Source: Patescibacteria group bacterium
GTDB lineage: Bacteria; Patescibacteriota; UBA1384; GWA2-35-9; JBASTP01
Reading direction: 5' to 3'
Assembly (NCBI GenBank): GCA_049274945.1
Contig: JBASTP010000002.1
Location: 1,125 to 65,124 of the forward strand
Length of the DNA: 64,000 bases
How positions within the stretch are numbered: position 1 is the first letter of the stretch; every line of letters begins with the position of its first letter. The notes below the pieces were generated by a model. The model ran no database searches, was not told the origin of the DNA, and saw nothing but the letters and a program-made list of their open reading frames with translations. Positions 13,708-55,493 of this stretch are shown piece by piece. Made by a program: the position numbers and the translations under genes.

Positions 13708-13726
13708 TTTATAAGGAATTTGCGCC

Positions 13727-20411: not shown

Positions 20412-21689
20412 ATGAAGTTCCTCCACTTTGCCGACATTCACTTTGGCATGGAAAATTACGGCCGCACCGATAGCGCCAGCGGCTTAAGTTCTCGGCTCAC
20501 TGATTGGCAGCGCTCCTATCAATTTTTGATCGATACCGCCCTGAAAGAACAAGTTGATTTCGTGATTTTTTCCGGCGATGCCTACAAAACTCGCGATCCG
20601 GCGCCCACCTACCAGCGCGCCTTTTGCCAAGGCGTCCGCCAGCTGGCGGACGCAGGGATACCGGTGGTCATGATCACCGGCAACCACGATATTCCGAATG
20701 CCCTGGGCAAAGCCACCAGTCTCGATATTTTCGCCGCGCTCAAGGTGCCCCATGTATTGCTGGCCACTGAACCCATACTCCTGGAACTCGATTTGAGCAA
20801 GCACAACCCGGCCAAGCAGGGGATTGTGCAACTGGCGCTCCTACCCTGGCTCACCAAATCAAAGTTCCTGACCGATGAAAAATTGAAACTGATGACCAGC
20901 GAGCAGTTAAGCGGCTATTTTCAGGCAGCAGTAGGCCGCTACATCAAGGATTTTTCAAGCCAGCTCAACCCGCACCACCCGGCAATTTTGGTGGCCCATG
21001 GTTCGGTGGAGGGCGCGGTATTCGGCTCGGAACGGACTATTATGCTCGGCTCGGATATTGTGATCCCGGCCCAGGCGCTGGCGGAGTCGAAATTTGACTA
21101 CGTGGCGCTCGGCCATATTCACAAACACCAGGTGGTGCTCACGCAGCCACTCACCGTATATGCTGGATCGATCGAACGGATTGATTTTGGCGAAGCGAGC
21201 GACGACAAGGGGTTTGTGATTGGGAACATTAGTAGCACAGTAGCCAGTAGCGCGGTAGCGCAGGGGAAAGTTAGTTGGAAATTTGTGAGAGGGCCGGCAC
21301 GACCCTTCACGGTCGTTCAAGTTAAAAGTGAAAAGTTTACCGTGAAAAATTTGGAGCCTACCGAAGTAATACTCCAAGAAATCAGAAAACACGATCTCAA
21401 AGGGGCGGTGGTAAAGGTGGTGATTGAGTGCGACGAGCAGACGGCGCCCCAGATTCTAGAAAACCCCATTCGCCAGCAACTCGAGGTACAAGGCGTGGAC
21501 TTTATTGCCTCAATCCAAAAAGAGGTGGCGGTGGCTGGACGAACAGAAACCGAACTAGGCTACTCTGATTCGCTCGTGGCTGCCTCGCCGCTGGAGCTCC
21601 TCGAAAAGTTTTTTGAGAGCAAAAACACGCCCAAAAAAGAGGTAGCGCGGTTGCGCCAAATGGCGGAACAACTGCTGGCAGAACGTTAA
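20412..21689 (+). CDS. sbcD: DNA repair exonuclease SbcD (Mre11-like)
   Basis: LHFADIHFG, GDAYK, ITGNHD phosphoesterase motifs; start at MKFLHF. Confidence 0.85.
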   Translation: MKFLHFADIHFGMENYGRTDSASGLSSRLTDWQRSYQFLIDTALKEQVDFVIFSGDAYKTRDPAPTYQRAFCQGVRQLADAGIPVVMITGNHDIPNALGKATSLDIFAALKVPHVLLATEPILLELDLSKHNPAKQGIVQLALLPWLTKSKFLTDEKLKLMTSEQLSGYFQAAVGRYIKDFSSQLNPHHPAILVAHGSVEGAVFGSERTIMLGSDIVIPAQALAESKFDYVALGHIHKHQVVLTQPLTVYAGSIERIDFGEASDDKGFVIGNISSTVASSAVAQGKVSWKFVRGPARPFTVVQVKSEKFTVKNLEPTEVILQEIRKHDLKGAVVKVVIECDEQTAPQILENPIRQQLEVQGVDFIASIQKEVAVAGRTETELGYSDSLVAASPLELLEKFFESKNTPKKEVARLRQMAEQLLAER

Positions 21690-21735
21690 TAAGACCAGGA
21701 ATACCAAGGGTTACTCGAAGCAACAACCCCTGGGG

Positions 21736-22158
21736 TTACTTTTTTACTTTTTTGGGTTCGAACTTGAGCGAGCACGAGTTAATGCAGTACCTCATTCCCG
21801 AAGCCGGCTTGCCGTCGGACATACTCGAGGGGCCGTCGGGGAAAACGTGGCCTAAATGCGCGCCGCAGTGTTTGCACATTACCTCGATGCGCGTCATGCC
21901 GTGGGAGGTATCGGTGGCGGTGGTGATGTTCTCGGCGACCGCCGGATCGGTAAAGCTGGGCCAACCGGTGCCGGATTCGAATTTGGCGTCGGAGGCAAAC
22001 AAGGGAGCGTTACACACCAAACAATGGTACATGCCATCATCGTGATTGTTCCAATATTTGCCGGAAAACGCCCCTTCGGTACCTTTTTCCTGGGTTACCC
22101 GATACTCGTCCGGGGATAGTTTCTTTTTGAGGTCTGCTTTGTTTAATTTTGTGGTCAT
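21736..22158 (-). CDS. msrB: peptide methionine sulfoxide reductase MsrB
   Basis: CLVCNAPLF...[12 protein letters not shown]. Confidence 0.92.
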
Positions 22159-22194
22159 TTTTCTTCTATATTACTGACTTATTATTAATTAGCG

Positions 22195-22340
22195 ACGGGT
22201 GGCGAGAGGTGCGAGGGGACGGGCGGGTTGCTAGCCTGCCTGCCGGTAGGCAGGCGCCACAGGAAGCCCGTTATGGCCGACGCGCTCCTGTAGAGCGCAC
22301 GCCCGAGGCGGTACCTGAGCCAGGACCCGCCGCTAAAAAA
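22195..22340. repeat. GC-rich modular repeat family, copy B (with 22-bp palindromic insertion tgcctgccggtaggcagg)
   Basis: gtggcgagaggt...gggcgggttgctagc[insert]gccacaggaag...tagagcgcacgcccgaggcggtacctgagccaggacccg. Confidence 0.65.
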
Positions 22341-22350
22341 TACATTGCTA

Positions 22351-22851
22351 CTAAATGTGGCAGGTTGCCTTAATGCCGCGCTTGGCGTAATACTGTTGGT
22401 GATAATCTTCGGCTTCGAAAAACCCCTTGGCCGGCACGATTTGGGTAACAATTTTTTGAGTCAACTCTTTCTGGTACGCGTCGCGGGATTTTTCGGCAGC
22501 GTTCTTTTGTTCGGCATTTTTGTAAAAAATCACCGAACGATACTGGCTGCCAACGTCAACCCCTTGGCGATTAGGGGTAGTAGCGTTATGATTTTTCCAG
22601 AAGATATTCAGGAGCGCTTCGTAGGAAATTATTTTGGGATCATAGGTCACTTCCACCGCCTCGGCGTGGCCCGTGGCATCAGCGCAGACTTGCTCGTAAC
22701 TCGGATTTTTTACGCTGCCGCCGCTGTAGCCAACCCGCGTTGACTTGACCCCTTTTTGCATGCGGAAAATCTCCTCCACACCCCAAAAACACCCGGCGGC
22801 AAAGGTGGCGGTAGAAAGCTTTCCAAGTGGCTGTTTTGGCATAGTACTCAT
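22351..22851 (-). CDS. msrA: peptide methionine sulfoxide reductase MsrA
   Basis: ATFAAGCFWGVE active site. Confidence 0.92.
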   Translation of the reverse strand: MSTMPKQPLGKLSTATFAAGCFWGVEEIFRMQKGVKSTRVGYSGGSVKNPSYEQVCADATGHAEAVEVTYDPKIISYEALLNIFWKNHNATTPNRQGVDVGSQYRSVIFYKNAEQKNAAEKSRDAYQKELTQKIVTQIVPAKGFFEAEDYHQQYYAKRGIKATCHI

Positions 22852-22957
22852 TTAACCTAGCCGTTGAGTCTTTATTCTACCATCTCCTTGACTTTTTGTC
22901 AATTTTGGTGATAGGCGGTATAGACGGTTTTATGCCAGGTGTCGTAGTATTGGGCGT

Positions 22958-25030
22958 ATGATCCCCGTTAAACTCACCCTCCACAACTTCCTCTCCTACG
23001 CCGATGCCCAGCTCGATTTCGGGCCGTTTGATTTGGCGGTGCTGACCGGCCCCAACGGGGTAGGCAAGTCATCACTCCTGGAAGCGATCACCTGGTGTGT
23101 GTGGGAGCAGGCGAGAGCCAGTGCTAATGAGCTGATCCGCCAGGGCGAGCAAACTATGTGGACCGAGTTCATCTTCGAGCACGAGGGCGGCGTGTACCGC
23201 ATCGTGCGGCGCCGAGCGCGCAAAAGCCGGGGCGGCGAAACCACGTTGGAGTTCCAGATTAAAAATAGTAGTCAGGGACAGTGGAAAAGTCTCACCGAAG
23301 GGACGATTCGACTGACTCAGGAAAAGATCATCAGCACGCTGCGGTTGCCGTACGAAATTTTTGTAAACTCGAGCTACCTGCGCCAAGGCCATGCCGATGA
23401 GTTTACCGTGAAAACCCCGGCTGAGCGCAAAGCGCTCCTGGCAGAGATCTTAGGGTTGTCATTGTACGACACGCTCGAGGAGCGAGCACGCGAGAAAATG
23501 CGCCAAGCCCAGTCGCGGCTCGAACTACTCAAAGTGCAGACCATTGAGCTCAAGCTGCAGCTTGCGAGGCAGCCAGAAATTGAAGCGGCGCTCAAAACCA
23601 GCCAACAAGACCACGAACGAATCAATAAAACAGTGGGCATTGCCACTGAAAACCTCGAAAAATTAAACGAGGATCGGCTGCAGTTTGAGAAAATCGGCCA
23701 GCAACTTGAACTTGAACGTAAACATTTTGCGACATTGCAAGGACAGATTAAGGAGCTGATGGAGCAAAAAGACGCCACGGCCAAGGAGCTCAAGGAACTG
23801 AAGGAAAGCTTAACTCATAAAGAAGAGACCGAAACAAAATTCAAGGAGTACCAAGTGGTAAAAAAACGGCTCGATACGCTGTCGCATACGCTAATGGTTG
23901 CCCAAAAAATTGAGCAGGATTTGGCGGTAGGGGAGTCGAAGCAGAACGATTTGGCGAGTATTACCAAACGGCTGGGCGAACTGAAACACTGCCCAACCTG
24001 CCTGCGGCCGCTGCCTAAAACCGAAGCCCAAACAATCATTAAGGAACTGGAAGCTGAGTTTGCCAAAACCACCGGCAGCGCGCTCACCCAGCTCAGGGCT
24101 TCGCTTGCCAAGCTGGGGTTTTCGAAGGACGAGTATGCCAAGCTCCAGGCCCAGTACCGTGAGCTCGATAGCACGGTAGGCGAAATGCAGGAACTCAAAG
24201 TTGCCCAGACTAAAATCAGTGAAAAGCAACAATTTGTGGCTACCCTGGAACACCAGGTAGTCGCCCAGACTAAACAACTTGCCGAAATCACGGCATCGGG
24301 CCGCAAGCTCAAACTCGAACAGGTGAAATTCGAGCACGCTTCAACGATGTACCAGCAAGAAAAAACGCGGCTCGATGCACTGCAACTCCAAAAATCGCAA
24401 CTCGAACGGACCCTGGGCGGCCTCCAGGAACAGGTGAAAGGGATCAAGGAACAGCAAACAAGGAACAAAGAACTCACTAAAGAACTAACTAAACTCCAAG
24501 AGGAAACGCAGAGCTGGCAGGCGCTGGCACTGGCATTTTCCAAAAAGGGTATTCAGGCCATGATTATTGAACAGTCGCTCCCGGCGATCGAGCAGGAGGC
24601 CAACGTGATTTTGGGGCGGCTCTCTGACTCCCGGCTCAAAGTGGCGTTCGAAACGCAGCGCGCGAAAAAAACCTCTGACGAGCTCATCGAAACGCTCGAC
24701 ATTATTGTGTCCGACGAGCTAGGGGAGCGCGCCTATGAACTCTTTTCCGGCGGCGAAGGATTTCGGATCAACTTTGCCATTCGGGTGGCAATCAGCAAAT
24801 TGCTTTCTATGCGGGCCGGCGCCAAACTTAAGTTTTTGGTGATTGACGAGGGTTTTGGCATGCTCGATATGGCCGGCCAGCAAGACATCATTGCCGCGAT
24901 TAATGCCATCAGGGAAGATTTTGCCAAGGTGATTGTGGTGAGCCACATCGAGACGATTAAGGATGCGTTCCAGACCAGAATTGAAGTCTCGAAGGGGGTG
25001 CATGGCTCGCAGATCTCGCTTGTAACCTAG
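22958..25030 (+). CDS. sbcC: SbcC/Rad50-like coiled-coil ATPase
   Basis: N-terminal GPNGVGKSS Walker A, long coiled coil with CPTC zinc hook, C-terminal signature/Walker B (VIDEGFGMLD). Confidence 0.85.
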   Translation: MIPVKLTLHNFLSYADAQLDFGPFDLAVLTGPNGVGKSSLLEAITWCVWEQARASANELIRQGEQTMWTEFIFEHEGGVYRIVRRRARKSRGGETTLEFQIKNSSQGQWKSLTEGTIRLTQEKIISTLRLPYEIFVNSSYLRQGHADEFTVKTPAERKALLAEILGLSLYDTLEERAREKMRQAQSRLELLKVQTIELKLQLARQPEIEAALKTSQQDHERINKTVGIATENLEKLNEDRLQFEKIGQQLELERKHFATLQGQIKELMEQKDATAKELKELKESLTHKEETETKFKEYQVVKKRLDTLSHTLMVAQKIEQDLAVGESKQNDLASITKRLGELKHCPTCLRPLPKTEAQTIIKELEAEFAKTTGSALTQLRASLAKLGFSKDEYAKLQAQYRELDSTVGEMQELKVAQTKISEKQQFVATLEHQVVAQTKQLAEITASGRKLKLEQVKFEHASTMYQQEKTRLDALQLQKSQLERTLGGLQEQVKGIKEQQTRNKELTKELTKLQEETQSWQALALAFSKKGIQAMIIEQSLPAIEQEANVILGRLSDSRLKVAFETQRAKKTSDELIETLDIIVSDELGERAYELFSGGEGFRINFAIRVAISKLLSMRAGAKLKFLVIDEGFGMLDMAGQQDIIAAINAIREDFAKVIVVSHIETIKDAFQTRIEVSKGVHGSQISLVT

Positions 25031-30701: not shown

Positions 30702-31196
30702 ATGTCAGATCAGGAACTACCTGAAGGAATTACGATTGATCGCGAGTTTTGGCAGGACGATCCACGGGGCGTTAATGTCAACTACGCAAAGGGCGAAATT
30801 GAAATCCAGGCGGAGTGCGTCGTAGAATACTACAATGAACAATCAGATTTATTCAGGATTGTACTGAAAGCACAAAACAGAGAAGACGATCATATCAAAA
30901 TTGGAAGATGTTTCAATTCCGTAGCACAGGCGGTGGCATGGATAAACAGCGATGTGGCAAACACATTCTTGGCTGGGCTTAGATGGCCGGGAGATATGGA
31001 GCACCCCACCCACGCCGTCTTCACCTTATGCTATACCATGGCCGATGAGTTGCCCCGCTTGGCGGAATTCGTAAAAAACGACCCTGGGCAGAAGGCTATC
31101 GAAGAGGCACTTATGCAACACTTCGAGACAGCGAAAGAGGCATTAGCTGTATTCGATCGCCTGCAAATAGAGAACGGAACAACGATGTCCACCTGA
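30702..31196 (+). CDS. hypothetical protein (164 aa) inside a direct-repeat-flanked insertion
   Basis: GGAG RBS; no known motif. Confidence 0.5.
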   Translation: MSDQELPEGITIDREFWQDDPRGVNVNYAKGEIEIQAECVVEYYNEQSDLFRIVLKAQNREDDHIKIGRCFNSVAQAVAWINSDVANTFLAGLRWPGDMEHPTHAVFTLCYTMADELPRLAEFVKNDPGQKAIEEALMQHFETAKEALAVFDRLQIENGTTMST

Positions 31197-31351: not shown

Positions 31352-32821
31352 TCATAGAGCCGTGGGTTGTTCGGTTGACGATCCAGGTTCGTAACCGATA
31401 TCTCGATCATGGTAGGTAAACAAAGGCGGCAGGTTCTCAACTTCCTGGTAACCGCGTTCGTGTTCGCGAACGAACGTGTAGCACTCAGGTGGCAGCCCGA
31501 TCGTGGCAGCTGCCAAACGAACTGCCTCTTCTGAAGCTTGGTAGCCCTCTGGCAACCGCCTGAAGTGAGGCCTCACTTGCTGGAAAAGGCGAAACAAGGG
31601 AGCCCGGGCACCGTCCTGGCGAACCAGTCTCACCTGAGTAACCTCTCGTATGCCCATCACAGCATCGAGTTTACCGGTGATAATTTTCCAGTAACTGTGG
31701 AGGCCAATATAGTAGAGGATGCGGTCTATTAAGATCTGACCATACCGAGGATCGTCACGCTCGAACACTAGGTCGGGATTCACGGAATTAAGCCGCGGAT
31801 TGAGCGTGAAGCTGATCGAGACGGGTTGGTCAAACTCCGTCAGCCAGAGCTTGGCTCGGGCATTAGGAAACTGGTCGGGAAGAAGCTGGAGTGAGGTGTA
31901 CTTTATCTGACGCATCTGGAGCGCTGAAACGTTCAGTTTAACTCGGTCAGCGCCACCAGTTCTCAGGCCATAGCGTGGTTCATCGATGATCTCGTGCCAC
32001 ATTTGAGCTTCGTGATCAAGGTACTGCTGCTCGTGTCGGTCGAACCACTCGATTAGCTCATTGAGCTTGAATTCATCCCTCTCAAACTGTTGATGAATCG
32101 AATGAACCAACTCGCTAAATTGGGAGGCTACAGCATCCGGTACCGGCAGACGAACTATCTCAGTCGCATTCCCGGCGAGCATGTAAAAAGCTGCCATGGA
32201 ATTCAATGCCTCCCCTGGCTGCCATTGACTGATCGGGACGATGGACAACTGGGTTGCTATGGTGCCGTAGTGAAGTAAGAGCATCTCAATCACCCTGACC
32301 GCCTGGCAATGACCTTGGACAGCCCCGATCAGGAGATTCTGCCAGGTTGCGCAACGATGCGCCAGATACACAACCTCACCAAACATATGGTGGAGGCTTG
32401 TGTACCACTTCAAGTTATCCTGTTGGTCGATTTCACCCCAGAGCGACTTCCTGGCGCGGTGGAAGAGATCGAAGAGCCTGACTGCGCGATCTACCTGCCC
32501 TCGCTCGGAGGTGAGAAAAACCAGCGCGAAGCGGGTCGGTTTCGCTTGATTCATTACAATCGAGCAGTAGGCTTTGGCAATCTTGATCACAGTCTCTGGG
32601 GAGAGTTGTTCAAAACGCTCGCCAACCTTCCGGCATGACCGTTCGATCAACCGTATTTGATGTCTCTTCAAGTTAGGCAGGTTCCAACACTGACCGAGGG
32701 CAAGACAAAAACGAAGCGTCTCAGGAATATCTTGCCAAGCCTGGCTGGCGGCAGCGCTAACAACGCGATCCCTGCCAGTCAGGATGGCCTGTTCAAACTC
32801 TGAAGTTTGCACAACTTTCAT
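31352..32821 (-). CDS. hypothetical protein (489 aa)
   Basis: Long uninterrupted ORF, no recognised motif. Confidence 0.55.
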   Translation of the reverse strand: MKVVQTSEFEQAILTGRDRVVSAAASQAWQDIPETLRFCLALGQCWNLPNLKRHQIRLIERSCRKVGERFEQLSPETVIKIAKAYCSIVMNQAKPTRFALVFLTSERGQVDRAVRLFDLFHRARKSLWGEIDQQDNLKWYTSLHHMFGEVVYLAHRCATWQNLLIGAVQGHCQAVRVIEMLLLHYGTIATQLSIVPISQWQPGEALNSMAAFYMLAGNATEIVRLPVPDAVASQFSELVHSIHQQFERDEFKLNELIEWFDRHEQQYLDHEAQMWHEIIDEPRYGLRTGGADRVKLNVSALQMRQIKYTSLQLLPDQFPNARAKLWLTEFDQPVSISFTLNPRLNSVNPDLVFERDDPRYGQILIDRILYYIGLHSYWKIITGKLDAVMGIREVTQVRLVRQDGARAPLFRLFQQVRPHFRRLPEGYQASEEAVRLAAATIGLPPECYTFVREHERGYQEVENLPPLFTYHDRDIGYEPGSSTEQPTAL

Positions 32822-33367
32822 CTCCTTTGAGTTAGGTTGTCAAACAGACGGCAGTGCCAGTATACCTTAAAACTTTTGATATGTCAAGGTAAATACGGAG
32901 TAAAATTAGGTTCAAAACAGGGGACTGGCGTGAAAAATGGCGAGGTATGGGAGTCGGGTAGGGGAGTCTCGCCGATTTTTTGAGGGGATGTCACCGGCTG
33001 ACGAAAGTAGGGTATATACACGCCCACATTTTGCGATGGCCGGGCAGGGGAGGACGTTGTAAAATGTGGGCCTGATTTTGCGTCATCACTCTTGAACCTG
33101 ATTTGATGACGCAAAATCAACATTGTACGACCTACCATCTCCATCTCTTTTAAGCCCCTTCACCAACCGATCGGGCAGATCGCGGATCATCGTTTTATTA
33201 TTTCCCTACCCTCCCCTGCATCCCCGGCGCTACCGGCAGTATTCCCCCGCTAAAAGGTGGGTGATAGCGCAATAAACACCCCTACTCCGCTATCCCCTGT
33301 CTCTATAAAAAAATAACAGGTTAGATAACCTGTAGTTGCCTACCTGTTTCTAACCTGTTGGAACCTG

Positions 33368-33658
33368 CTATTCCTGCCCTAAGGCCTGCTCGGCCTCTAG
33401 GAGATCTCTCCAGGTGAACGAATGGACAACGCCGGGCGCTGTAACTAAGTCAACCGGCATGCCGCTCGGAATGGTTGGCTTTTTGTCGCCTTTCGCGGCT
33501 GCCTCCGATGCATGTTCAATGGCATGGATGATAACGCTCACACAATGTAGGGCAACCTGCGTTGGCTCGGCGTGATCGGGTTCAAGGGAATCTGCCCCGA
33601 TTGCCATAGCATGCACATCAATTTCCACCCGGATACGGTTTTTGTGTCGTTTTGTCAT
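33368..33658 (-). CDS. hypothetical small protein (96 aa)
   Basis: ORF; 4-nt overlap (ATGA) with upstream gene. Confidence 0.45.
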   Translation of the reverse strand: MTKRHKNRIRVEIDVHAMAIGADSLEPDHAEPTQVALHCVSVIIHAIEHASEAAAKGDKKPTIPSGMPVDLVTAPGVVHSFTWRDLLEAEQALGQE

Positions 33659-33993
33659 TTCCCTACCTCCTGGATTTTCGTCACCGGTTGACTATGGCGC
33701 AAATCCAACTCCCCTACTTTTGTAACCAAGTATCTATCAAACACCTCGGCCATTTTGCGGTCAGTATTCAGCACCTCGAACACAGCCATATTCTCTGACG
33801 GATGCCGTATATTCAGGAAAAAGGCGCGAAAATATATGGAGTCGCCTAACCGTTCCACCCAACGGCTATCTCGCTGGATTTCGTTGAGCAGCTGGACAAC
33901 ATTCGCTGTCGATCCGGTGACGATGTGCCGCTTAATATCACTCGATTGAATCTTTCGCCGAACAGTGTGGAAAAGAGTATGAAGCGCGCCCAC
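33655..33993 (-). CDS. hypothetical small protein (112 aa)
   Basis: ORF; translationally coupled with 33368..33658. Confidence 0.45.
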   Translation of the reverse strand: MGALHTLFHTVRRKIQSSDIKRHIVTGSTANVVQLLNEIQRDSRWVERLGDSIYFRAFFLNIRHPSENMAVFEVLNTDRKMAEVFDRYLVTKVGELDLRHSQPVTKIQEVGK

Positions 33994-34039
33994 CTAAACC
34001 ACCTCAATTCTTCAAGAACTATGAGAACACTATACCAGA

Positions 34040-36655
34040 TTACTCCCCTATTTTCACGGTCTCGCCCGGTTTGACTTCCTGGACAGGACTCTCCCCTATC
34101 TTGGGGCGCTCACTCTGATTTTGCGGCGGAACCCCCTGCTCGAAGTAATGCCACGTTTTGCCCTGCTCGTCTTTGAGTTCCTGATGGTCTTTTACCGGTT
34201 GCTTTCGCGCCTCGCCGGCAATAGCTTTGTCGGTACTCGGGCCCGCCGGCGCTCTCCCCTCCTGCGACCATTCGCGAATCTTTTGCTCCACCAATTCTCG
34301 CGGCCGGCCATAACGCTCGTGAGAAAACGCAATAATTTTTTCCTTAAGACCGGCCCCTTCGCGCTGGGGCGGCAAGGTGATCGCCGAGAACGGATTTGAG
34401 GTAACGCCATCAATCGCCATCTTGACATAGACATGATGATTATCGAGGTTTACCAAATCGGTGGCCTCGAAGACCGGCTCAAACTCCTTAACAAGAAGCG
34501 GCGCGTCTTGCGCCCCCACCCGAAATGTCACGAGCGTACCTACGTTGCCAAAAATGGCTTTAGCCACAATTTCCTCCATCTGAGCGATGTACTGGTTGGT
34601 CATAATGAGGTTCAAGTGGTACTTGCGGGCCTCGGAAAGGATCACGGCGAACGACTCGGTGGCAAAGTTTTGGAACTCGTCAACGTAGAGGTAAAAATCA
34701 ACCCGCTCCGGCTCCGCCACGTTGGCGCGCTCGAGCGCCGCAATCTGAATCTTAGTGATCAGCAGAGCCCCCAGCAGCGCCGAGGTATCCTCACCGATCT
34801 TGCCGATTGAAAGGTCCATCAGCAGAATCTTCTTGCTGTCCATAATCTCCTTCATCGAAATGGTCGAAACCGGTTGACCGACAATGTTCCGAATAGTGGA
34901 GGTTGCCAAAAACTGGCCAACCTTGTTTTGAATCGGCGCCACTGCCTCGGTGCGGAACTTGGGGTCGTACTTTTCGTACTCGTTGATCCAAAAATCCTTG
35001 AGTACCGGGTCATCGAGGGCATCAACCACCTTCTTGCGGTAGCCCTTGTCTACCAGGATGCGCGTGACGCCCAGCATGGTGGCGTTGGGGTAGCCGATCA
35101 ACGAAAGAATCGCGTTGCGCAAAATGTACTCCAGGCGCGGCCCCCAGCTCTCGCCGAAAATCTTTTTGAAAATCCCCACCACACCGGAGGCAACGATATT
35201 TTTTAAATCCGGATCAACCTCCTCCATCACGTTGAACCCGATCGGGAAATCGCGGTCCCAGGGCGCCAGCCACACCACATCCTTGACCCGTTCCTCGGGA
35301 ATAAAGTCCAAAATGTGGCCGATCAAATCGCCGTGAGGATCAACCACGCCCACTCCCCTACCTTCGAGAATATCGTTAATAATCATATTCTCGAGCATCG
35401 TGGACTTGCCGGTGCCGGTTTTGCCGATGGCGTAGAGGTGGAGCCGCCGATCGTTACTCTTGATACCAAATCTAGAACTGACATTGCGGAAGTTGGTTTC
35501 GGCAAAGAGGGTAAGCTCCCCGGCGGGCACCGAGCCTTCGATCGGCAAATTGAGTGGCGGCTCGCCTTTCTTACTACCTACCCAAGCGATTGAGGGGGTG
35601 GCCACTGAAATGTTGGGCAGATGGAAAATCGAGGCAAGCTCCTCGATGTTCAGGACAAAGCCAGTCTCGGCAAAGCGGCGCTTCCGGAAATCCTCCAAGA
35701 ACTCGGGGGCGCTCGTGGGCGGCTTGCCAATGAAACCATTAAGGTTTGTGGTATTGAATTGCTTGAAGGCGCCCACAATGCCGTTTAGACGCAGGAGCGC
35801 GCTTGCTTCGTCGGCTGCTACTGCACCCAGGCGAATTTTAGTCTCAAAAGCGAGTTTGGTTACCTTGGTCTCAATCCCCTCGACTGCCGCGGCTTCAGGG
35901 CCTGAGAGTTCAACCTTGGTTGCCGACGGTTTTTCCCCTTCCGCAGGAGCTGGCCGAGTGAATGAGGTTACCGCCTCCGAAGCGAACGACAAGAGGCCCT
36001 TGGACACCCCGCTCACAATTGACTCCCCTTCCGGGTGTTGGCCGGCTTTCAGCATTCGTGCCCAGGTGATCCCCTTATTTTTCCAGGAGTCAGGCACCGG
36101 GCGCATCAATACCTGAATCCAGGCTCCTTCCCCTTCGGCAATTTTAGAAAGCACGCCGGTAATGCCGGCAAGCGGGTCAACTTCGAAGTTTAGAAAGGTT
36201 TTAATGGGAAAGACATCAGAGCGGACGAGCGTTACTTCCGCGCCCACAAACGAACGGTTCTCCGGCGGCGATTCTGGCACGTAGTCTTCGATCTCCTTAA
36301 TCTCTACCGTCGGATACTGGGCATAAATCTGACCTTCCACAAAATCACGCAGCGTTACCGGCACCCAGGCGTAGAACAGAATCTGGTTAGCCCGTGCCAC
36401 AATCTCAAAACCAAACTGTTCCTGGACCGGCACGCTCGCCGAGTAAATGCCGTGGAGCGCCGCAAACATATTTTCGGCCGAGAGCGGGCCTTTCTCGTTG
36501 TTCTTAGGCACTAAAATTAGCAGGAGTTGGTAGCGCCGGCCAGCCAGGTACTCGAGCTTCTTGCGGGTATCCTTCATGCGCAGCCACAGCACGATAACCG
36601 CCACCAATGAGGCGTAGATTACAAGCGCAGCGAGGATGCGGAGAAATAATTCCAT
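34040..36655 (-). CDS. membrane-anchored DUF87/VirB4/HerA-like P-loop ATPase with TraG/TraD-like C-terminal domain (871 aa)
   Basis: N-terminal TM helix; LHLYAIGKTGTGKST Walker A, VVDPHGD, YLYVDEFQNF Walker B, ARKYHLNLIMTNQY. Confidence 0.8.
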   Translation of the reverse strand: MELFLRILAALVIYASLVAVIVLWLRMKDTRKKLEYLAGRRYQLLLILVPKNNEKGPLSAENMFAALHGIYSASVPVQEQFGFEIVARANQILFYAWVPVTLRDFVEGQIYAQYPTVEIKEIEDYVPESPPENRSFVGAEVTLVRSDVFPIKTFLNFEVDPLAGITGVLSKIAEGEGAWIQVLMRPVPDSWKNKGITWARMLKAGQHPEGESIVSGVSKGLLSFASEAVTSFTRPAPAEGEKPSATKVELSGPEAAAVEGIETKVTKLAFETKIRLGAVAADEASALLRLNGIVGAFKQFNTTNLNGFIGKPPTSAPEFLEDFRKRRFAETGFVLNIEELASIFHLPNISVATPSIAWVGSKKGEPPLNLPIEGSVPAGELTLFAETNFRNVSSRFGIKSNDRRLHLYAIGKTGTGKSTMLENMIINDILEGRGVGVVDPHGDLIGHILDFIPEERVKDVVWLAPWDRDFPIGFNVMEEVDPDLKNIVASGVVGIFKKIFGESWGPRLEYILRNAILSLIGYPNATMLGVTRILVDKGYRKKVVDALDDPVLKDFWINEYEKYDPKFRTEAVAPIQNKVGQFLATSTIRNIVGQPVSTISMKEIMDSKKILLMDLSIGKIGEDTSALLGALLITKIQIAALERANVAEPERVDFYLYVDEFQNFATESFAVILSEARKYHLNLIMTNQYIAQMEEIVAKAIFGNVGTLVTFRVGAQDAPLLVKEFEPVFEATDLVNLDNHHVYVKMAIDGVTSNPFSAITLPPQREGAGLKEKIIAFSHERYGRPRELVEQKIREWSQEGRAPAGPSTDKAIAGEARKQPVKDHQELKDEQGKTWHYFEQGVPPQNQSERPKIGESPVQEVKPGETVKIGE

Positions 36656-36677
36656 AACTTAACGACTCAATATTCGG

Positions 36678-37256
36678 TCAATGCTTTGCGCTAATGACAT
36701 TCTCCAGCGCCGCGAAGGTTGATTCTTCATTGCGGGGTACCACAATCGTCAGTTCATCCCCTGGCCGGGCCCTGAAGTACGTCACCGAGGCCAGGAGCAC
36801 ACTGTAGCGCTTACCGGATGCCACCACCTCGTAACGGCCGCCGGATTCTTCGAGTTTCCCAATCAGTTTCTTGCGATCAACCGGGCCGATTTGCTTGTAA
36901 ATAAAGGTGCCATCGCCGCCCACCGTTAACTTAAGAATGTCGCCAGGCACCAGCTTGCTCTTGCTGGCGTAGTTAGGTGGTACCGGGTAGCGCTTGCCGC
37001 CCGACGCCACCATCATCTCGCCATCGAACACTCCCTCGATTACCTTGGCCTCGTCGCCCTCTTTCTGGTGGAGCTGTTTAGCCTTTTCGCCATACAGGCC
37101 ACCAAAGAGCAGCGCTCTTGCCTGGCGAATCTGATTTTCAGCCGAATCAAGCAGCTGCCTCACACGATCGAGTTCCACTTTAGGGGCAGTGTTTTGCTTT
37201 TCTATTTTCGTTTGGGTTTTAGATGGTGATTTCGTCTTTGTTTGTTTGGTAGCCAT
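36678..37256 (-). CDS. hypothetical protein (192 aa) with internal duplicated GKRY...PGD..L motif
   Basis: ORF between the two ATPase paralogs. Confidence 0.5.
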   Translation of the reverse strand: MATKQTKTKSPSKTQTKIEKQNTAPKVELDRVRQLLDSAENQIRQARALLFGGLYGEKAKQLHQKEGDEAKVIEGVFDGEMMVASGGKRYPVPPNYASKSKLVPGDILKLTVGGDGTFIYKQIGPVDRKKLIGKLEESGGRYEVVASGKRYSVLLASVTYFRARPGDELTIVVPRNEESTFAALENVISAKH

Positions 37257-37265
37257 TGATATTTT

Positions 37266-39731
37266 TTAAACTTTTACTAATGGTTCGTTACTCCCTGTTG
37301 GCACACTCGCCGGTTTGGTACGCTCGGTAAGCTCGCTCTCGATCATCTTGCGGTCCTTGCCGTAGGAAAGCCTCGAAAGTTGCCTCGTTGCCTCTGCCAT
37401 TTGCTTATCCTTAACGACTGGCGATTTGATCCCGCGCATCGAGAAGGGTTTGCTGGGGGTGCCGTCAATCAGCAGTTTAACATATGTCGAGAACCGGTCA
37501 AGGTTCGCAAGGTCGTCAATCGACACCCCCGGGAACTCCTTGACCATAAACTCGGCGTCAGACGCGCCGATCCGGTAACTGATAAGCGTGCCGGCGTTGC
37601 CGACCACTGAATCGCGGATCTTTTCGGTGAGCTGGGCAATATATTGGTTGGTGATATGGAGGCCAATGTGGTACTTGCGCGCTTCAGAGAGAATGGTGGC
37701 AAAGCTGTCGGTTGTGAAATTTTGGAACTCGTCAACGTAGACGTAAAAATCTCTGCGCTCTTCCTCGGGGGTGTCGGCCCGCGAAAACGCGGCGGTCTGG
37801 AGCTTGGCAATAATAATCATGCCCAAAAGGTAGCTATTCATCTCGCCGATCTTGCCCTTGGACAGGTTAACCAGCAGGATTTTGCGATCGTCCATTAGCT
37901 TGCGCATATCAAACCCTGATTTAGCCTGGCCAATGATGTTCCGCATTAAGTCGTTCGTCATAAATCGGCCGAATTTGGAAATAAAATAGTTGTACATTTC
38001 GGACTTATGGAAATCGGCCGTTTTGGCGAGCTGCTGCTCCCAAAAACTCCGCACCACGGGATCGGTCACAAAACTCACCGCGCGTTCGCGGAAACTGTCG
38101 TCGGTAAAGAGGCGCGGAATCTCAATGAGCGAGCCGCCTTCGGGCAGGTTCATCACCGTGAGGGCGGCATTGCGGCCCCAGTGCTCGAATTGGGGCCCTA
38201 CAATGCCGGTGCGGTTGGGATCGTACAGCTTGTAGAAAATCTCGATCCATTCCTGGATCAAAAAGTCCTTTTCCTCGGGCCGCTTCCACTCCAGGAGGTT
38301 CAGCCCAACCGGCCGCTCGGTGTCTGAGGGGTCAAACAGAATTACATCTTCTGCCCGCTCCTTGGGAATCTTGGCGAGAATCGATTCAATGGCATCGCCC
38401 AGCGGATCAATAAAGCAGCAGCCGGCGCCCGAACGAATATCCTGCTCGATCATGTTTTCAAACAGCGTCGTCTTGCCTACGCCAGTTTTGCCGATCATGA
38501 AAATGTGGCGGAGCCGATCAGGCGGCTTAATGCGCACCTCGTTGGTCTCGCCCCGATAGACCGACTCGCCAATCACCGTGCCCTCCCGGGGCAGGTTTGG
38601 CGGCGGCGCCAAGACTTTGCTCATCATCCAGCGGATGTTCGGGGTGTCGGTGTAGCGATTGGGCAGGTGAAAGAGCGAGGCGAGCTCCTCGGAGTTCATA
38701 ATCAGTGACTTGGCCCTGTCAAAAGTCCGGAAAATGAAATCTGTGGCAACTTGGGCCGAATCTCGGGCAATAATCGGCTTAAAGCCGTTCCAGGCCGGTG
38801 TGGCAAACTGGGAGAAGGCCGAAACAATGTTGTCGCGGTGGGCCTGGGCGGTCATGGCATCCGGGCCAACCGCCACAATGCGGATCACGGTCTTGAACCC
38901 GGGCTTACTCCCCTTCTCGTTGAACGCCTTCATGAGATCCTCCTGTACCGGTGTCAGCCGCCAGGATTTGTTGCCGCTGCTCTCGGGCCCGGCCCTGCCT
39001 GCAGCCGAGGCCGCTACCCCGCCCGAGAACGCCTCAAAAAGCTCGTGGACCACCCGCATGGTTGGTGAGCGGTAGATGTAGCCGGTTTTGCCCTCGAGCA
39101 CGTGTTTGGCGGCAATCGCCGGGTGCACCCGCCAGCCCTCATCGAGCGGTTTAATGAGAATCTGAATCGCCGCGGCTGATTTATCGCCCAGTTTGGCAAA
39201 GGCGCCGGTCAGGTTATTGATCGGATCTGCCTCCAGATATTTGAAGGTGCGGATCGGAAAAATGAACCGCTTGGTGAACTCGAGGGTTGCGGCGGCGATC
39301 ATGCCCTTGGTTTGGAAAATGTTGTGCCCGGTCGCCCGCTCAACCGAAACCTTGGGGAAAAAACTGTAGAGCTGCCGCTCTAAAAGACTCGCCAGGTGGC
39401 CCGGGCAGGAAACGTAAAAAGAAACCAAATTACCCTCAACCACCATCTCAAAACACATAATATCCTGCTCGCCGGTCAGCTTGTGGGCTAAATCGCGTTT
39501 GAGAGTGGAAGATAACGAGGCAAAAAATTGTTCAGTGGGCGCGAGCGCCTCCTTAAAATCCTTAGGTTGGTTGGCATTAGCATCATCCTGCTGACGGAAA
39601 ATCTCTTTTGGCATGGTCACGAGAAATGTGACTTGATCAACAATATGGTGGGCCTTGTGCTTGCGAACATGGCGCCAAACCACAAAAAGCCCAATCGCCC
39701 AGAGTACAAGGAAGAGGAGAAGGTAAATCAT
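37266..39731 (-). CDS. membrane-anchored DUF87/VirB4/HerA-like P-loop ATPase paralog (821 aa)
   Basis: HIFMIGKTGVGKTT, FIDPLGD, FYVYVDEFQNF, ARKYHIGLHITNQY; same architecture as 34040..36655. Confidence 0.8.
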   Translation of the reverse strand: MIYLLLFLVLWAIGLFVVWRHVRKHKAHHIVDQVTFLVTMPKEIFRQQDDANANQPKDFKEALAPTEQFFASLSSTLKRDLAHKLTGEQDIMCFEMVVEGNLVSFYVSCPGHLASLLERQLYSFFPKVSVERATGHNIFQTKGMIAAATLEFTKRFIFPIRTFKYLEADPINNLTGAFAKLGDKSAAAIQILIKPLDEGWRVHPAIAAKHVLEGKTGYIYRSPTMRVVHELFEAFSGGVAASAAGRAGPESSGNKSWRLTPVQEDLMKAFNEKGSKPGFKTVIRIVAVGPDAMTAQAHRDNIVSAFSQFATPAWNGFKPIIARDSAQVATDFIFRTFDRAKSLIMNSEELASLFHLPNRYTDTPNIRWMMSKVLAPPPNLPREGTVIGESVYRGETNEVRIKPPDRLRHIFMIGKTGVGKTTLFENMIEQDIRSGAGCCFIDPLGDAIESILAKIPKERAEDVILFDPSDTERPVGLNLLEWKRPEEKDFLIQEWIEIFYKLYDPNRTGIVGPQFEHWGRNAALTVMNLPEGGSLIEIPRLFTDDSFRERAVSFVTDPVVRSFWEQQLAKTADFHKSEMYNYFISKFGRFMTNDLMRNIIGQAKSGFDMRKLMDDRKILLVNLSKGKIGEMNSYLLGMIIIAKLQTAAFSRADTPEEERRDFYVYVDEFQNFTTDSFATILSEARKYHIGLHITNQYIAQLTEKIRDSVVGNAGTLISYRIGASDAEFMVKEFPGVSIDDLANLDRFSTYVKLLIDGTPSKPFSMRGIKSPVVKDKQMAEATRQLSRLSYGKDRKMIESELTERTKPASVPTGSNEPLVKV

Positions 39732-40141
39732 GCTACTTGCTCCTTTTGCCCTAGGTCGTGGTGGGCCTCAATATGCGCGGGTCTCAGTTGGTTAACCCCT
39801 GCTTGAATATCTGCAGGGCCCTTTGCTTTATTCATAAGCTCTCGAATACTCCGCTCGGCGTCATCAGGATGAGAAATGTCTAGAATTTGCTTTCCCACCT
39901 GCCTAGCTGGCGCGCTAACCACTTGCTGTACCTGATCTGGAAGATCTTTGATAGTATCTTGAACGGCCTCGAGTCGCTCTTTTGTTGCAGCGGCTTCAGC
40001 TTGGTGGTCTGGTTGCCCCTGGACTACCTCAGGTTGGGTAACCTGGGACGGTTTAGACACCTCAAAAGAAGCAGCTACTTTGGCGGCTAATTCCTGCTCA
40101 GTTCCTCCCCCTGCTCCTGGTTGTGGTACTGCACTAGGCAA
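39728..40141 (-). CDS. hypothetical protein (137 aa), start-stop overlap (ATGA) with downstream ATPase
   Basis: ORF track. Confidence 0.45.
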   Translation of the reverse strand: MPSAVPQPGAGGGTEQELAAKVAASFEVSKPSQVTQPEVVQGQPDHQAEAAATKERLEAVQDTIKDLPDQVQQVVSAPARQVGKQILDISHPDDAERSIRELMNKAKGPADIQAGVNQLRPAHIEAHHDLGQKEQVA

Positions 40142-40261
40142 AACAGCCCTCCCTTTTGCTATTAGAGCCTACCTAGTACTCAAAAATACCAGCTTTTGAT
40201 CGGGGTGTCAAAGAAAATAATAGAAAAATTCGATCATATAATGCCGTAGCTTGCCTGATGA

Positions 40262-40400
40262 GGGGCAGTTGCTAGCGCCACAGGAAGCGAAGCGCTCCTG
40301 CCCCGCGGAGCTGCCTGGACGACGGGACCCATCGAAGATGGGCAGGAGTTACCAAGCAGCGGAGCGGAAGGTCCCGCCGTAGGCGGGATAGAGTGCTGCC
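40262..40400. repeat. GC-rich modular repeat family, copy C (more diverged)
   Basis: Identical 20-mer gttgctagcgccacaggaag; ccccgcggagc and gggatagag..gccccgag blocks. Confidence 0.55.
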
Positions 40401-40426
40401 CCGAGTGGGCAAGCAGGCATTATTAT

Positions 40427-43219: not shown

Positions 43220-43525
43220 TCACATTCCCGGCAGGTTCACGCCCAAATCTTTCATCACGCCCTTGGTCTTCTCCGCTGCCATGGTTTGAGCTTGAGAAAT
43301 CGCTTCTGCCATCACCTTAATGAGCGTTTTTTCTAGCCCATCTTTGTTGTCGGGCCGCAAGGCGCTTGCGTCAATCTTGAGATCCACAATATGCTGCTCG
43401 CCGTTGATCACTACAGCCACCGTGCCATCGTCAGAACGCGCTTCGATCTCCGTTTCCTTGAGCTCTTTCTGAATGTCTTTTGCTTTTTTCTGCAGTTCGT
43501 AAAGTTGTTTGAATTTGTCGAGCAT
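43220..43525 (-). CDS. ybaB: YbaB/EbfC nucleoid-associated protein
   Basis: Family pattern, ~100 aa. Confidence 0.88.
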   Translation of the reverse strand: MLDKFKQLYELQKKAKDIQKELKETEIEARSDDGTVAVVINGEQHIVDLKIDASALRPDNKDGLEKTLIKVMAEAISQAQTMAAEKTKGVMKDLGVNLPGM

Positions 43526-43541
43526 AATGTTAACCTCTAAA

Positions 43542-43634
43542 GGAAGTTATACAACCACTGATATTTAATCCACTGATAGACACTGATTTAGGTATCTTAT
43601 CTGTGATTATCTGTGGCATAAATCTGTGGTTGTA
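43542..43634. repeat. intergenic palindromic repeat, copy 7
   Basis: ggaagttatacaaccactgatatttaatccactgatagacactgatt...ttatctgtggcataaatctgtggttg. Confidence 0.85.
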
Positions 43635-43647
43635 GTCCTACCTTATT

Positions 43648-44613
43648 TTATTTAGGTTGCTGTTTTAAATATTCTTGCACAAATTGGTCGAGTCCGCCAC
43701 CCAGCACGCTTGCCGTATCGGCCGTTTCATACCCGGTGCGGTGGTCTTTGACGAGTTGGTACGGCTGCAGCACGTAGCTGCGAATTTGGTTACCCCACTC
43801 GACCGATAATTTCTCGCCGCGCAATTCATCGACTTTTTCTTTGTGCTTTTGCTGCAGTAACGTCGCGAGCTTGGCTTTGATGACTTTCATGGCGATTTCT
43901 CTGTTTTGCGACTGTGATCGCTCGTTCTGGATCGCCACGGTAATGCCGGTTGGCACATGGGTTACCCGAACCGCGGTCTCCAACTTGTTGACATTCTGGC
44001 CGCCGTGGCCGCCCGCGCGGTAGGTATCAATTTTGAGGTCTTGCGCCGGAATATCTGCCACGGTTTGCGATTCAATTTCCGGCACGATTTCAACGAGCGA
44101 AAAACTGGTATGTCGCGCTTTATCGGCGTCGTAGGGCGAGATCCGCACCAGCCGGTGCACGCCAGCTTCGGATTTAAGCAGGCCATAGGCGCTGCCCCCG
44201 CTCACTTTGGCCTGGGCTGATTTTATGCCTGCTTCCTGGCCGGCCGACTCTTCGAGCAATTGGAATGTGAGCCCTTTGCGCTCGCTGTAGCGGCGGTACA
44301 TTTCAAGGAGCATGCTGGCCCAATCTTGGGCTTCGGTGCCGCCGGCGCCGGCGTGGATTCCCAGGTAGGCGGGCTTGTCGTCGTAGGGGCCGGAAAACTG
44401 GGCAAGCTGCGTAAGCGGCGCGAGGTCGGCATCGGTTTGCGCCGCGTCAAATTGCCCAATTAAGCCCTGGAGCTGGCTGTACTGGCTCGAAACCGCCCGC
44501 GCATTTTCTTGATCGCGCCAAAAATCAGGCGCAGCCATCGCGGTTTCAAACTCGCGCACCTGTGCCCGCTTTTCGTCGATTTTGAGCAATGCTCCAATTT
44601 CTACCTTATTCAT
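43648..44613 (-). CDS. prfB: peptide chain release factor 2 (no programmed +1 frameshift apparent)
   Basis: GGQ motif ([11 protein letters not shown]), SPY(F) motif; ATG 44613 (ORF track begins at TTG). Confidence 0.85.
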
Positions 44614-44616
44614 AAT

Positions 44617-44666
44617 GAAGTTAAACAACCACTGATATTAAACCACAGATAACCACTGATAATTAC
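44617..44666. repeat. intergenic palindromic repeat, half copy 8 (left arm only)
   Basis: gaagttaaacaaccactgatattaaaccacagataaccactgataatt. Confidence 0.7.
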
Positions 44667-50451: not shown

Positions 50452-51078
50452 CTAGTATTCCTTTCTCCCTTCCAGCGCCCGCGAGAGCGTTACCTCGTCG
50501 GCGTACTCAAGATCGCCGCCCACCGGCAGGCCTCGGGCGATTCTGGTAACCTTGAGAGTTTTGGTGACTGACCCCTGCCCCTTAAGTTTGATGATCTCGC
50601 GGTCAATATACATCGCGGTGGCCTCGCCCTCAAGCGACGGATCGGTTGCAAGAATCACCTCTTTTATTTTAGGCTCAGCTTGGCGCAGTTTGTCAAGTAG
50701 ACTACCTACGTTGAGCTCGGCCGGGCCGATGCCATCGATCGGCGAAATTACGCCGCCCAGTACGTGGTAGCGGCCGCTATAGCCGGTTTTCTCAAGCGCC
50801 ACGATATCGAGCGGTTCTTCCACCACCATGACTTCGGTAGTCTCGCGCTTGGGATCGCTACAAATGGCGCAGGGTGAGGCTTCGGCAATGTTGCCGCAGA
50901 TTTCGCAGCGGGTGAGTTTGTTCTTTAGGCTAGCGATTGCGCCGGCAAGCTCGGTGATTTCGGTCTCGGGGCGGGTGAGGAGCCAAAACGTCAGCCGCGA
51001 CGCCATTTTAGGCCCAATGCCCGGCAAGCGGGTGAGCTGATCGATGAGGGATTGGACGGATTTGGGTAAAATAGACAT
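50452..51078 (-). CDS. recR: recombination protein RecR
   Basis: LPGIGPKMASRL HhH, C4 zinc finger, Toprim. Confidence 0.93.
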   Translation of the reverse strand: MSILPKSVQSLIDQLTRLPGIGPKMASRLTFWLLTRPETEITELAGAIASLKNKLTRCEICGNIAEASPCAICSDPKRETTEVMVVEEPLDIVALEKTGYSGRYHVLGGVISPIDGIGPAELNVGSLLDKLRQAEPKIKEVILATDPSLEGEATAMYIDREIIKLKGQGSVTKTLKVTRIARGLPVGGDLEYADEVTLSRALEGRKEY

Positions 51079-51095
51079 ATCTAATATTGTAGGCG

Positions 51096-51183
51096 TACAA
51101 CCACTGATGTTAATTCACTGATCATCACTGATTAAGATTTTTATCTGTGTTAATCCGTGGATCAGATATCTGTGGTTGTGGTA
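51096..51183. repeat. intergenic palindromic repeat, copy 12 (overlaps last codons of topA)
   Basis: gtacaaccactgatgttaattcactgatcatcactgatt...tatctgtgttaatccgtggatcagatatctgtggttg. Confidence 0.85.
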
Positions 51184-53230: not shown

Positions 53231-53233
53231 GGA

Positions 53234-53878: not shown

Positions 53879-53914
53879 TCGCTTCCAAGGTAGCATAATT
53901 ATCGCAAATGTCAA

Positions 53915-53993: not shown

Positions 53994-54014
53994 TTGAGTT
54001 ATATAATAAATCCA

Positions 54015-55430: not shown

Positions 55431-55493
55431 GATAAATTGTTCGAGCGGCTGAGCCATAGCTCTATTCTAACAAAAGATCCGCCCCGCGGCGGA

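Follow-up and report, generated by a model that had tools for sequence, protein, structure and literature searches.

Type IV coupling proteins (T4CPs) such as TrwB of plasmid R388, VirD4, TraD and DotL are membrane-anchored P-loop ATPases, and in conjugation TrwB and TraD are DNA-dependent ATPases, with TrwB acting together with a relaxosome. Homologs of these proteins have already been reported from Patescibacteria, where a survey by Quinonero-Coronel et al. (PMC12102498) counted 5,713 VirD4-type T4CPs in 2,918 of 3,035 genomes, with virB4 nearby for only 148, found relaxases to be almost absent, and allowed that the T4CPs may have been exapted. The occurrence of VirB4 in 80% and of T4CP in 96% of genomes is not proof that the T4CPs work independently of a type IV secretion system (T4SS), because by our own arithmetic a one-copy and a two-copy gene would give these figures at ~80% completeness of metagenome-assembled genomes. 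In S. epibionticum the T4SS cluster is essential, and it has no recognisable coupling protein or relaxase (Wang et al., PMC10633639). Here we describe a locus of seven minus-strand open reading frames (ORFs) in a 64,000-nucleotide stretch of a Patescibacteria group bacterium genome (the window; contig JBASTP010000002.1 of assembly GCA_049274945.1), which encodes two paralogous ATPases, A1 and A2, belonging very probably to a subclass of T4CPs that carries a DUF8128 domain.

A1 and A2 are paralogs over their full length, N-terminal domain included (36% identity over 771 columns, E 3e-151). Each begins with a single hydrophobic helix followed by basic residues, which is seen in both sequences and in the AlphaFold2 (AF2) model of A2; an N-terminal domain of ~340 aa follows, which is Pfam PF26449/DUF8128 in the precomputed Pfam annotation of the identical proteins P0001 and P0121, and then the ATPase domain. 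The Walker A motif (GKTGTGKS or GKTGVGKTT), DP(H/L)GD, the Walker B motif YVDEFQNF and the segment ARKYH...TNQY are invariant across the orthologs of both paralog groups, and the DPxGD motif aligns with that of TrwB. Against the curated cut-offs of the T4CP Pfam models PF10412, PF02534 and PF12696, A2 scores 33.7 bits and A1 26.4 bits with TrwB_AAD_bind (cut-off 20.5), A1 scores 23.2 bits with T4SS-DNA_transf (cut-off 20.1), and A2 scores 24.4 bits with TraG-D_C (cut-off 22). The best NCBIfam matches of both proteins are TraD/VirD4 models, and because the full-length equivalog cut-offs of these are not reached we regard A1 and A2 as divergent T4CP members. The only significant sequence matches in the PDB, whether for the single protein or for the family profile, are TrwB and DotL. 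All statements on the fold of A2 rest on predicted rather than experimental structures; in the model, the C-terminal half is matched to TrwB by Foldseek (E 8e-11, TMt 0.59-0.65, ~410-450 columns), and helices 482-606 between Walker A and Walker B form a predicted helical insertion. The HerA/DUF87 model PF01935 stays below its gathering score in both proteins (17.0 and 15.4 bits against 23.2), though its cut-off is passed by some orthologs and by a homolog from a Bacillus plasmid. By sequence, the ATPase domain is that of a coupling protein and not of the DUF87/VirB4/HerA type, and we are highly confident of the family and of the DUF8128 + T4CP architecture.

These results agree in most respects with an initial annotation of the locus made from the sequence alone, which had correctly given the seven ORFs with their lengths, 4-nt overlaps and 546-bp gap, the paralogy of the two large proteins, the catalytic and C-terminal motifs, and one N-terminal transmembrane (TM) helix in each. 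Its placing of the ATPases as membrane-anchored, TraG/TraD-like members of the FtsK/HerA superfamily was sound, and the added label of DUF87/VirB4/HerA was imprecise, since the Pfam scores make them T4CPs; of the profile comparisons that it had proposed, TrwB_AAD_bind and TraG-D_C came out above their cut-offs and DUF87 and VirB4 below. The N-terminal domain for which it had no function is real, but it has a family, DUF8128. Finally, it had named ordinary FtsK/SpoIIIE chromosome translocases as the identity that would speak against it, and the ATPases are not of that kind: the FtsK_SpoIIIE model PF01580 reaches 13.4 bits against a cut-off of 24, neither a gamma (PF09397) nor an alpha domain matches A1 or A2, and each has one TM helix rather than several. 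The mad8 profile of PADLOC, a component of the MADS defence system, also matches the two ATPase cores (37407-38579 and 34256-35518; E 2e-13 and 7e-12); the match covers only the generic P-loop core, and we do not read it as a sign of a defence role.

Compared with TrwB, VirD4, TraD and DotL, the two proteins share the N-terminal anchor, the P-loop domain with Walker A, DPxGD, Walker B and helical insertion, the TraG-D_C segment, and a structural TM-score of ~0.6 with TrwB in the predicted model. TrwB differs in its second TM helix, in the lack of a ~340-aa domain separating membrane and ATPase, in its low identity (~17%), and in its work with a relaxosome, whereas no relaxase lies near A1 and A2. 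With FtsK and SpoIIIE they share the ATPase superfamily and the character of membrane-anchored translocases, whereas those proteins have alpha and gamma domains and four TM helices in place of one.

The N-terminal domain raises a different comparison, since in the predicted model it has the fold of the VirB4-type N-terminal domain. Sequence models of VirB4 do not recover this likeness: TIGR00929 gives 12.1 bits against 643 (A1 only), PF03135 and AAA_10 do not match, and there is no sequence similarity between A1 or A2 and the AAA_10 VirB4 of a Gram-positive locus (L167). VirB4 and TrwK differ from A1 and A2 accordingly, the ATPase of the latter being T4CP-type, and Patescibacteria have separate, bona fide VirB4 proteins. 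The VirB4 likeness is thus confined to the predicted fold of the N-domain. A DUF8128 profile search returned 4,751 representative proteins, which fall into A1- and A2-types, and stand-alone DUF8128 proteins of 410-470 aa are numerous among the representatives. A2-type genes from several other Patescibacteria classes (loci L022, L051, L054, L059, L062, L063, L066, L067, L073 and L074) are broken exactly after a conserved PPxNLP linker into two ORFs, one for DUF8128 (424-487 aa) and one for the ATPase (500-709 aa), with TAA or TAG stops and ATG starts; at 10 of 10 junctions both ORFs are in the same frame with spacers of 0-27 nt (multiples of 3), and some have two in-frame stops.

Outside Patescibacteria, tblastn found full-length homologs on 37 plasmids (24-31% identity, with >80% of the A2 query covered), hosted by Bacillus, Streptomyces-group actinomycetes, haloarchaea and others, and homologs are also present on Sulfolobus plasmids. 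In the case of the B. subtilis plasmid NZ_CP154917 (27.5 kb; WP_345805471.1) and the Embleya plasmid NZ_CP108778 (WP_331738717.1), the homolog adjoins a Replic_Relax relaxase within a cluster that also holds TcpC/PrgI and a separate AAA_10 VirB4, and because of this position it sits in the coupling-protein slot. By hhalign (probability 98.5%, E 2e-15) the N-domain of the plasmid homolog is a homolog of DUF8128, and these plasmid proteins show the same full-length combination of DUF8128-like N-domain and T4CP ATPase, with the same Pfam signatures. Plasmid pLS20, which we had considered as a further user of Replic_Relax and a DUF8128-type T4CP, carries a MobL relaxase instead, and its VirD4, of the CD1115 family, lacks DUF8128. 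Since the plasmid relatives occupy the T4CP slot and the pLS20 VirD4 has no DUF8128, the DUF8128 + T4CP proteins make up a coupling-protein subclass of their own on the mobile elements of monoderms and archaea; the Patescibacterial genes therefore descend from it, and are chromosomal, duplicated and without a relaxase. Unlike the plasmid genes, they have no T4SS genes nearby, and their partners (p192 and a helix-turn-helix (HTH) protein, described below) are specific to Patescibacteria. The phage family phrog_5156 also matches A1 and A2 end to end (E 6e-81 and 4e-79, profile positions ~49-809 of 824). Its members SPO1 gp27.4 (FJ230960; L170) and Bacillus phage G gp156 (JN638751) match over the full length (81-89% tblastn coverage), but at ~21-23% identity, in a different genomic context and with no function assigned in phages; phage D6E and 55-kb B. 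subtilis phages carry full-length DUF8128 + T4CP homologs as well. A membrane ATPase resembling coupling proteins is in this way encoded by large, lytic Bacillus phages.

Within Patescibacteria the family is large: the homologs number >4,200 of A2-type and >1,700 of A1-type, and all those with a named organism are Patescibacterial. Among 80 reference-genome loci seeded with A2, the A2-type gene is present in all and a tandem A1 in only six. Of 80 metagenome loci found with A1 as the seed, 66 extend far enough downstream to be informative, and in 58 of these 66 A2 lies within three genes after A1; the two are directly adjacent in 22, the order A1-p192-A2 is found in 21 and A1-p192-HTH-A2 in 15, three loci run A1-p192-HTH to the contig end, and five have other arrangements, with the reservation that many loci are phylogenetically close and hence not independent observations. 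An absent gene call can hide the second paralog, as in locus L165, where an uncalled 2.6-kb stretch between p192 and secF (13098-15762) is an A2-type gene with 50% identity to A2 residues 11-795, missed owing to a 100-N scaffold gap. In a neighbour-joining tree of 48 sequences the A1 clade has a bootstrap of 87/100 with plasmid T4CPs outside as outgroup, but A2-type monophyly is unsupported (19/100), for which reason we do not claim two reciprocally monophyletic clades. We nevertheless hold ancient paralogy and co-conservation of A1 and A2 to be very well founded.

The gene order of the window's clade is pth-rplA-rplJ-rplL-tgt-[small acidic ORF]-A1...A2-(DUF1290)-<secF<secD. In Saccharibacteria A2 stands in the order pth-dprA-topA-[Sigma70_r4+HARE-HTH protein]-A2 with ftsQ/ftsW-like genes downstream, and the A1-type gene lies beside gyrB-gyrA. 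In most Patescibacteria a ~350-aa Sigma70_r4 + HARE-HTH protein is encoded directly 5' of the A2-type gene (L002, L003, L007, L016, L081 and ~50 other loci); it is absent from the window. Neither a relaxase nor VirB4 was found in the window or in ~165 related loci, nor any VirB3/VirB6/VirB8-type gene. The plasmid homologs are genetically linked to a relaxase and to T4SS channel genes and the window genes are not, so the latter are best described as T4CP homologs without the canonical genetic context.

Among the small proteins of the locus, p192 is the only true recurrent partner. It has an N-terminal helix and a pair of beta-rich repeats that are related to each other (motifs PxNYASKSKLVPGD.LKLT and ASVTYFKA..GD.LTI.VP), is well conserved, and belongs to a family found only in Patescibacteria, with at least 8,000 homologs (8,000 of 8,000 scored candidates pass E 1e-3), no Pfam domain and no relatives found on plasmids. 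Comparison with PDB and Pfam gave nothing significant, only scattered sub-threshold SH3/OB-like matches, and identified no DNA-binding domain. It stays beside A1 where A1 and A2 are apart (L166), and is missing from a third of the A1-seeded loci. The small, acidic, Q/E/P/A-rich p137 is translationally coupled to A1 and is probably disordered. In tblastn and blastp comparisons with 160+ related loci it had no match, yet 40 loci have an E/P/Q-rich ORF of 95-140 aa tightly coupled 5' of the A1-type gene (E 12.7%, P 10.8%); these ORFs cannot be aligned and form BLAST clusters of ≤4 members, so p137 is conserved only in position and composition, as an acidic ORF. For p112, p96, p489 and p164, tblastn and blastp found no counterpart in ~165 related loci. 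Pfam, NCBIfam, PHROGs and PADLOC likewise gave no match for these four or for any of the five small or unclassified proteins, and the small proteins show no TM segment and no pilin, channel or secretin signature.

The published transposon-sequencing data for S. epibionticum (PMC10633639) allow the two types to be compared in function. SEML1_0293, which is A2-type by dprA-topA-HTH synteny, is non-essential in Table S1, and its HTH neighbour SEML1_0294, annotated 'RpoS' and belonging to a Patescibacteria-enriched core family, is essential. SEML1_0142 (1,019 aa, P-loop domain 381-800) is essential (ES/ES/ES), is preceded by the small essential SEML1_0141, and is followed by gyrB-gyrA-PAP2. Locus L169 has the same layout of small ORF, ATPase, gyrB, gyrA and DUF212, and because its ATPase is A1-type, SEML1_0142 is most likely the A1 ortholog, on the basis of synteny and annotation. 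Mapped by synteny in this way, the A1-type gene is essential and the A2-type gene dispensable in S. epibionticum. Both are flagged 'core' and 'Patescibacteria-enriched' in that work.

We explain the locus as a domesticated pair of DUF8128-class T4CPs that would most likely serve a distant T4SS, which we think somewhat more probable than not as a whole. A1 and A2 would be anciently duplicated, membrane-anchored T4CPs of the VirD4/TraD/TrwB class, from a subclass that acts as coupling ATPase beside a relaxase on monoderm and archaeal plasmids and that in Patescibacteria would have become, by domestication, a core module of the chromosome without a relaxase. The single N-terminal helix would anchor each ATPase in the cytoplasmic membrane, with the cytoplasmic DUF8128 domain as the membrane-proximal part, and the TrwB-like P-loop domain would assemble into a ring for ATP-driven recruitment and pushing of DNA, nucleoprotein or unfolded protein; ring-forming, ATP-driven membrane translocases are what we infer both proteins to be. 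They would then supply the 'missing' ATPases that couple or energise the MPF-FATA-like T4SS of Patescibacteria, docking on a platform of VirB3/VirB6/VirB8 type through the VirB4-like N-domain, for which a docking surface is a plausible role if the predicted fold is right. The paralogs would have diverged in role, p192 and perhaps the acidic upstream ORF may be A1-specific adaptor or regulatory subunits, and p112, p96 and p489 would be unrelated, lineage-specific genes. Service to a T4SS encoded elsewhere in the genome, to which, taken by itself, we give slightly less than an even chance, is judged the most likely role because that T4SS has no cis-encoded coupling protein, shares its monoderm (MPF-FATA) ancestry with the plasmid clusters in which T4CPs of this class are employed, and resembles the A1-type gene in being essential.

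Several observations weigh against this explanation. Neither the window nor the ~165 related loci contain a T4SS gene, and the link to a T4SS is for that reason drawn solely from family membership. The A2 ortholog SEML1_0293 is non-essential while the T4SS is essential, and neither ATPase was named a T4SS component by Wang et al. (PMC10633639). The Saccharibacterial neighbours are genes of DNA topology and processing (dprA-topA for A2, gyrBA for A1), not of secretion; the VirB4-like fold of the N-domain comes from a predicted model without sequence support; and SEML1_0142 was assigned to A1 from synteny and annotation, not from sequence.

These same neighbours would fit T4SS-independent DNA translocases that pump DNA alone or with ComEC, for instance as a natural-transformation motor replacing ComFA or in DNA export or repair, with the HTH protein or p192 as DNA-binding adaptor, and we consider this the main rival, though a clearly less likely one. 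T4CPs are, after all, DNA-dependent ATPases, the A2-type gene is fixed next to dprA-topA and the HTH gene in Saccharibacteria, and dprA, topA and recR lie upstream on the same strand in the window. The com core of S. epibionticum consists of ComEC, DprA and ComFC only (PMC10633639), so without ComFA, the sole ComF found being phosphoribosyltransferase-type, and the A2 ortholog is as dispensable there as comEC, comF and dprA (PMC10633639); the rarity of virB4 near Patescibacterial T4CPs (148 of 5,713) and the exaptation allowed by the survey's authors (PMC12102498) point the same way. Yet many bacteria that do not have this ATPase also link dprA to topA, which may therefore be passive synteny, the window's own clade has ribosomal-protein genes, tgt and secDF as neighbours, the Saccharibacterial loci are closely related and amount to few independent observations, the A1-type gene is essential while competence is dispensable, and p192 has no identified DNA-binding domain. 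A related suggestion of the initial annotation, that pilins and dprA in the vicinity hint at function, proved not to be specific, though Saccharibacteria do conserve dprA-topA next to their A2-type gene. That A1 and A2 are FtsK/SpoIIIE-type translocases of segregation or division is very improbable in spite of the shared superfamily, the placing of the SEML1_0142 P-loop on an FtsK template by ECOD, the essentiality of A1-type and the ftsQ/ftsW-like genes downstream of A2 in Saccharibacteria, given the low PF01580 score, the lack of gamma and alpha domains and the one TM helix; replacement of FtsK was rejected, as canonical FtsK coexists with both paralogs in S. epibionticum (SEML1_0096, essential, PMC10633639; 4TM + alpha + FtsK + gamma) and is present in TM7x too.

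The initial annotation had itself read the seven genes as self-contained machinery for secretion or DNA transfer at the cell surface. The tight spacing and overlaps from p137 to p96, with a promoter-like site 5' and a terminator-like one 3', and the membrane anchoring of both ATPases speak for a unit of this kind, but the locus has no channel, pilin, VirB4 or relaxase gene, p489 is apparently transcribed separately, and A1 and A2 are adjacent with nothing between them in 22 of 66 loci. Co-conservation, on which that reading depended, holds for the A1/A2 pair and fails for p112, p96 and p489, while p137 is kept in position only, and such an apparatus can hardly be expected. Nor do we give appreciable weight to the view that the locus is mobile DNA without core function, left behind or carried by an integrated conjugative or phage element: the closest non-Patescibacterial relatives are indeed on plasmids and phages, and variable small ORFs flank A2, but the gene order shared with housekeeping genes is maintained from class to class, genes for a relaxase, an integrase or VirB4 are lacking in the vicinity, the GC content of the locus is unremarkable, the catalytic motifs are invariant, and both S. 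epibionticum orthologs are core genes, one of them essential. A bolder form of the domesticated-T4CP explanation is speculative and in our view unlikely: A1 and A2 would be the energising and coupling module of the essential, relaxase-less T4SS, docking on the VirB3/6/8 platform through the VirB4-like N-domain, maybe as a hetero-oligomer that mimics VirB4 with its inner and outer rings. Helped by p192 as adaptor, they would power the passage of nucleic acid or protein from one partner to the other, epibiont and host, and the DUF8128 class would be an evolutionary intermediate between VirB4 and VirD4.

The layout of the locus and the other features of the window are given in Table 1, in which promoter and terminator calls are pattern or consensus matches only. 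Because a hairpin follows p96 and p489 has a promoter-like site of its own, p489 is probably a separate transcription unit. The p112 gene is probably co-transcribed with the ATPase genes. The neighbourhood that the initial annotation had described, with rplL, dprA and two type IV pilins, was confirmed, rplL, rplJ and rplA lying upstream of A1; its remark that the locus sits where rpoB would be is right in that it adjoins rplL, but this is ordinary synteny for the clade, in which rpoB and rpoC do not follow rplJ-rplL and the relatives have rplL, tgt and then the A1 module. Compared with L086-L164, the window has lost tgt from this position (40142-40426 region). It also lacks the HTH gene, and between A2 and the DUF1290-secF-secD block it carries p112/p96, p489 and p164 as an insertion peculiar to its lineage. 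In related genomes (L083/L084) this place is taken by other variable small ORFs, which makes the flank of A2 seem prone to variation. An Rfam cmscan of the whole 64 kb at gathering thresholds gave no match (no tRNA, riboswitch or rplJ/rplA leader).

Table 1. Features of the locus and of the remaining window (positions in the 64,000-nucleotide window).
Feature	Position	Strand	Remarks
Promoter candidate 5' of p137, sigma-70-like	40183-40211	minus	TTGACA-17-TATTTT with TG
p137, 137 aa	39728-40141	minus	4-nt overlap with A1
A1, 821 aa	37266-39731	minus	A1-type DUF8128 + T4CP ATPase
A1 N-terminal transmembrane anchor	39672-39728	minus	~residues 2-20, then basic residues; from sequence
A1 DUF8128 domain	38634-39644	minus	~residues 30-366; precomputed PF26449 for identical protein P0121, and alignments
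A1 T4CP-type ATPase domain	37407-38579	minus	~residues 385-775
A1 Walker A	38466-38492	minus	G414-T422
A1 Walker B	37722-37739	minus	Y665-Q670
p192, 192 aa	36678-37256	minus	conserved A1-associated partner
A2, 871 aa	34040-36655	minus	A2-type DUF8128 + T4CP ATPase, pan-Patescibacteria type
A2 N-terminal transmembrane anchor	36581-36652	minus	~residues 2-25, then basic residues; from sequence, AF2 helix 2-38
A2 DUF8128 domain	35588-36541	minus	~residues 39-356; predicted VirB4-N-terminal-domain-like fold
A2 T4CP-type ATPase domain	34256-35518	minus	~residues 380-800, with helical insertion
A2 Walker A	35402-35425	minus	G411-S418
A2 Walker B	34670-34687	minus	Y657-Q662
A2 TraG-D_C segment			residues 655-715
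A2 C-terminal tail	34043-34255	minus	residues 801-871; low-confidence model, probably disordered; length varies among orthologs
p112, 112 aa	33655-33993	minus	lineage-specific, outside the conserved module
p96, 96 aa	33368-33658	minus	4-nt overlap with p112; lineage-specific
Terminator-like hairpin and T-run	33316-33333	minus	directly after p96; probable operon end
Promoter-like site of p489	32859-32887	minus	11/12 consensus match
p489, 489 aa	31352-32821	minus	lineage-specific, outside the module; 546-bp gap to p96
p164	30702-31196
NrdR and class II ribonucleotide reductase with TSCPD domain	13727-17462
SbcD/SbcC-like pair	20355-25030
YbaB and PCRF/RF-1 release factor	43220-44628
recR-topA-CYTH-dprA	50452-55457		topA 51125-53230, dprA 54393-55457
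Two N_methyl type IV pilins	59404-60486

The occurrence of T4CP homologs in Patescibacteria is thus published; we found no description of the VirB4-like character of DUF8128 or of the kinship with plasmid T4CPs encoded beside relaxases and with a phage family, nor of the split into A1 and A2 with the tandem module and p192 and the mapping of one type as essential and the other as dispensable. The ultra-small Patescibacteria have two near-universal, anciently duplicated coupling-protein paralogs, and the DUF8128 subclass to which these belong bears on the relation of VirB4 to VirD4. The vague annotation of such genes as 'T4CP homologues, possibly exapted' becomes a set of concrete experiments in a genetically tractable species, with p192 and the essential Sigma70_r4/HARE-HTH protein flagged as candidate partners. 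If the bolder form of our explanation were true, a conjugation motor would have been repurposed for an obligate symbiotic lifestyle.

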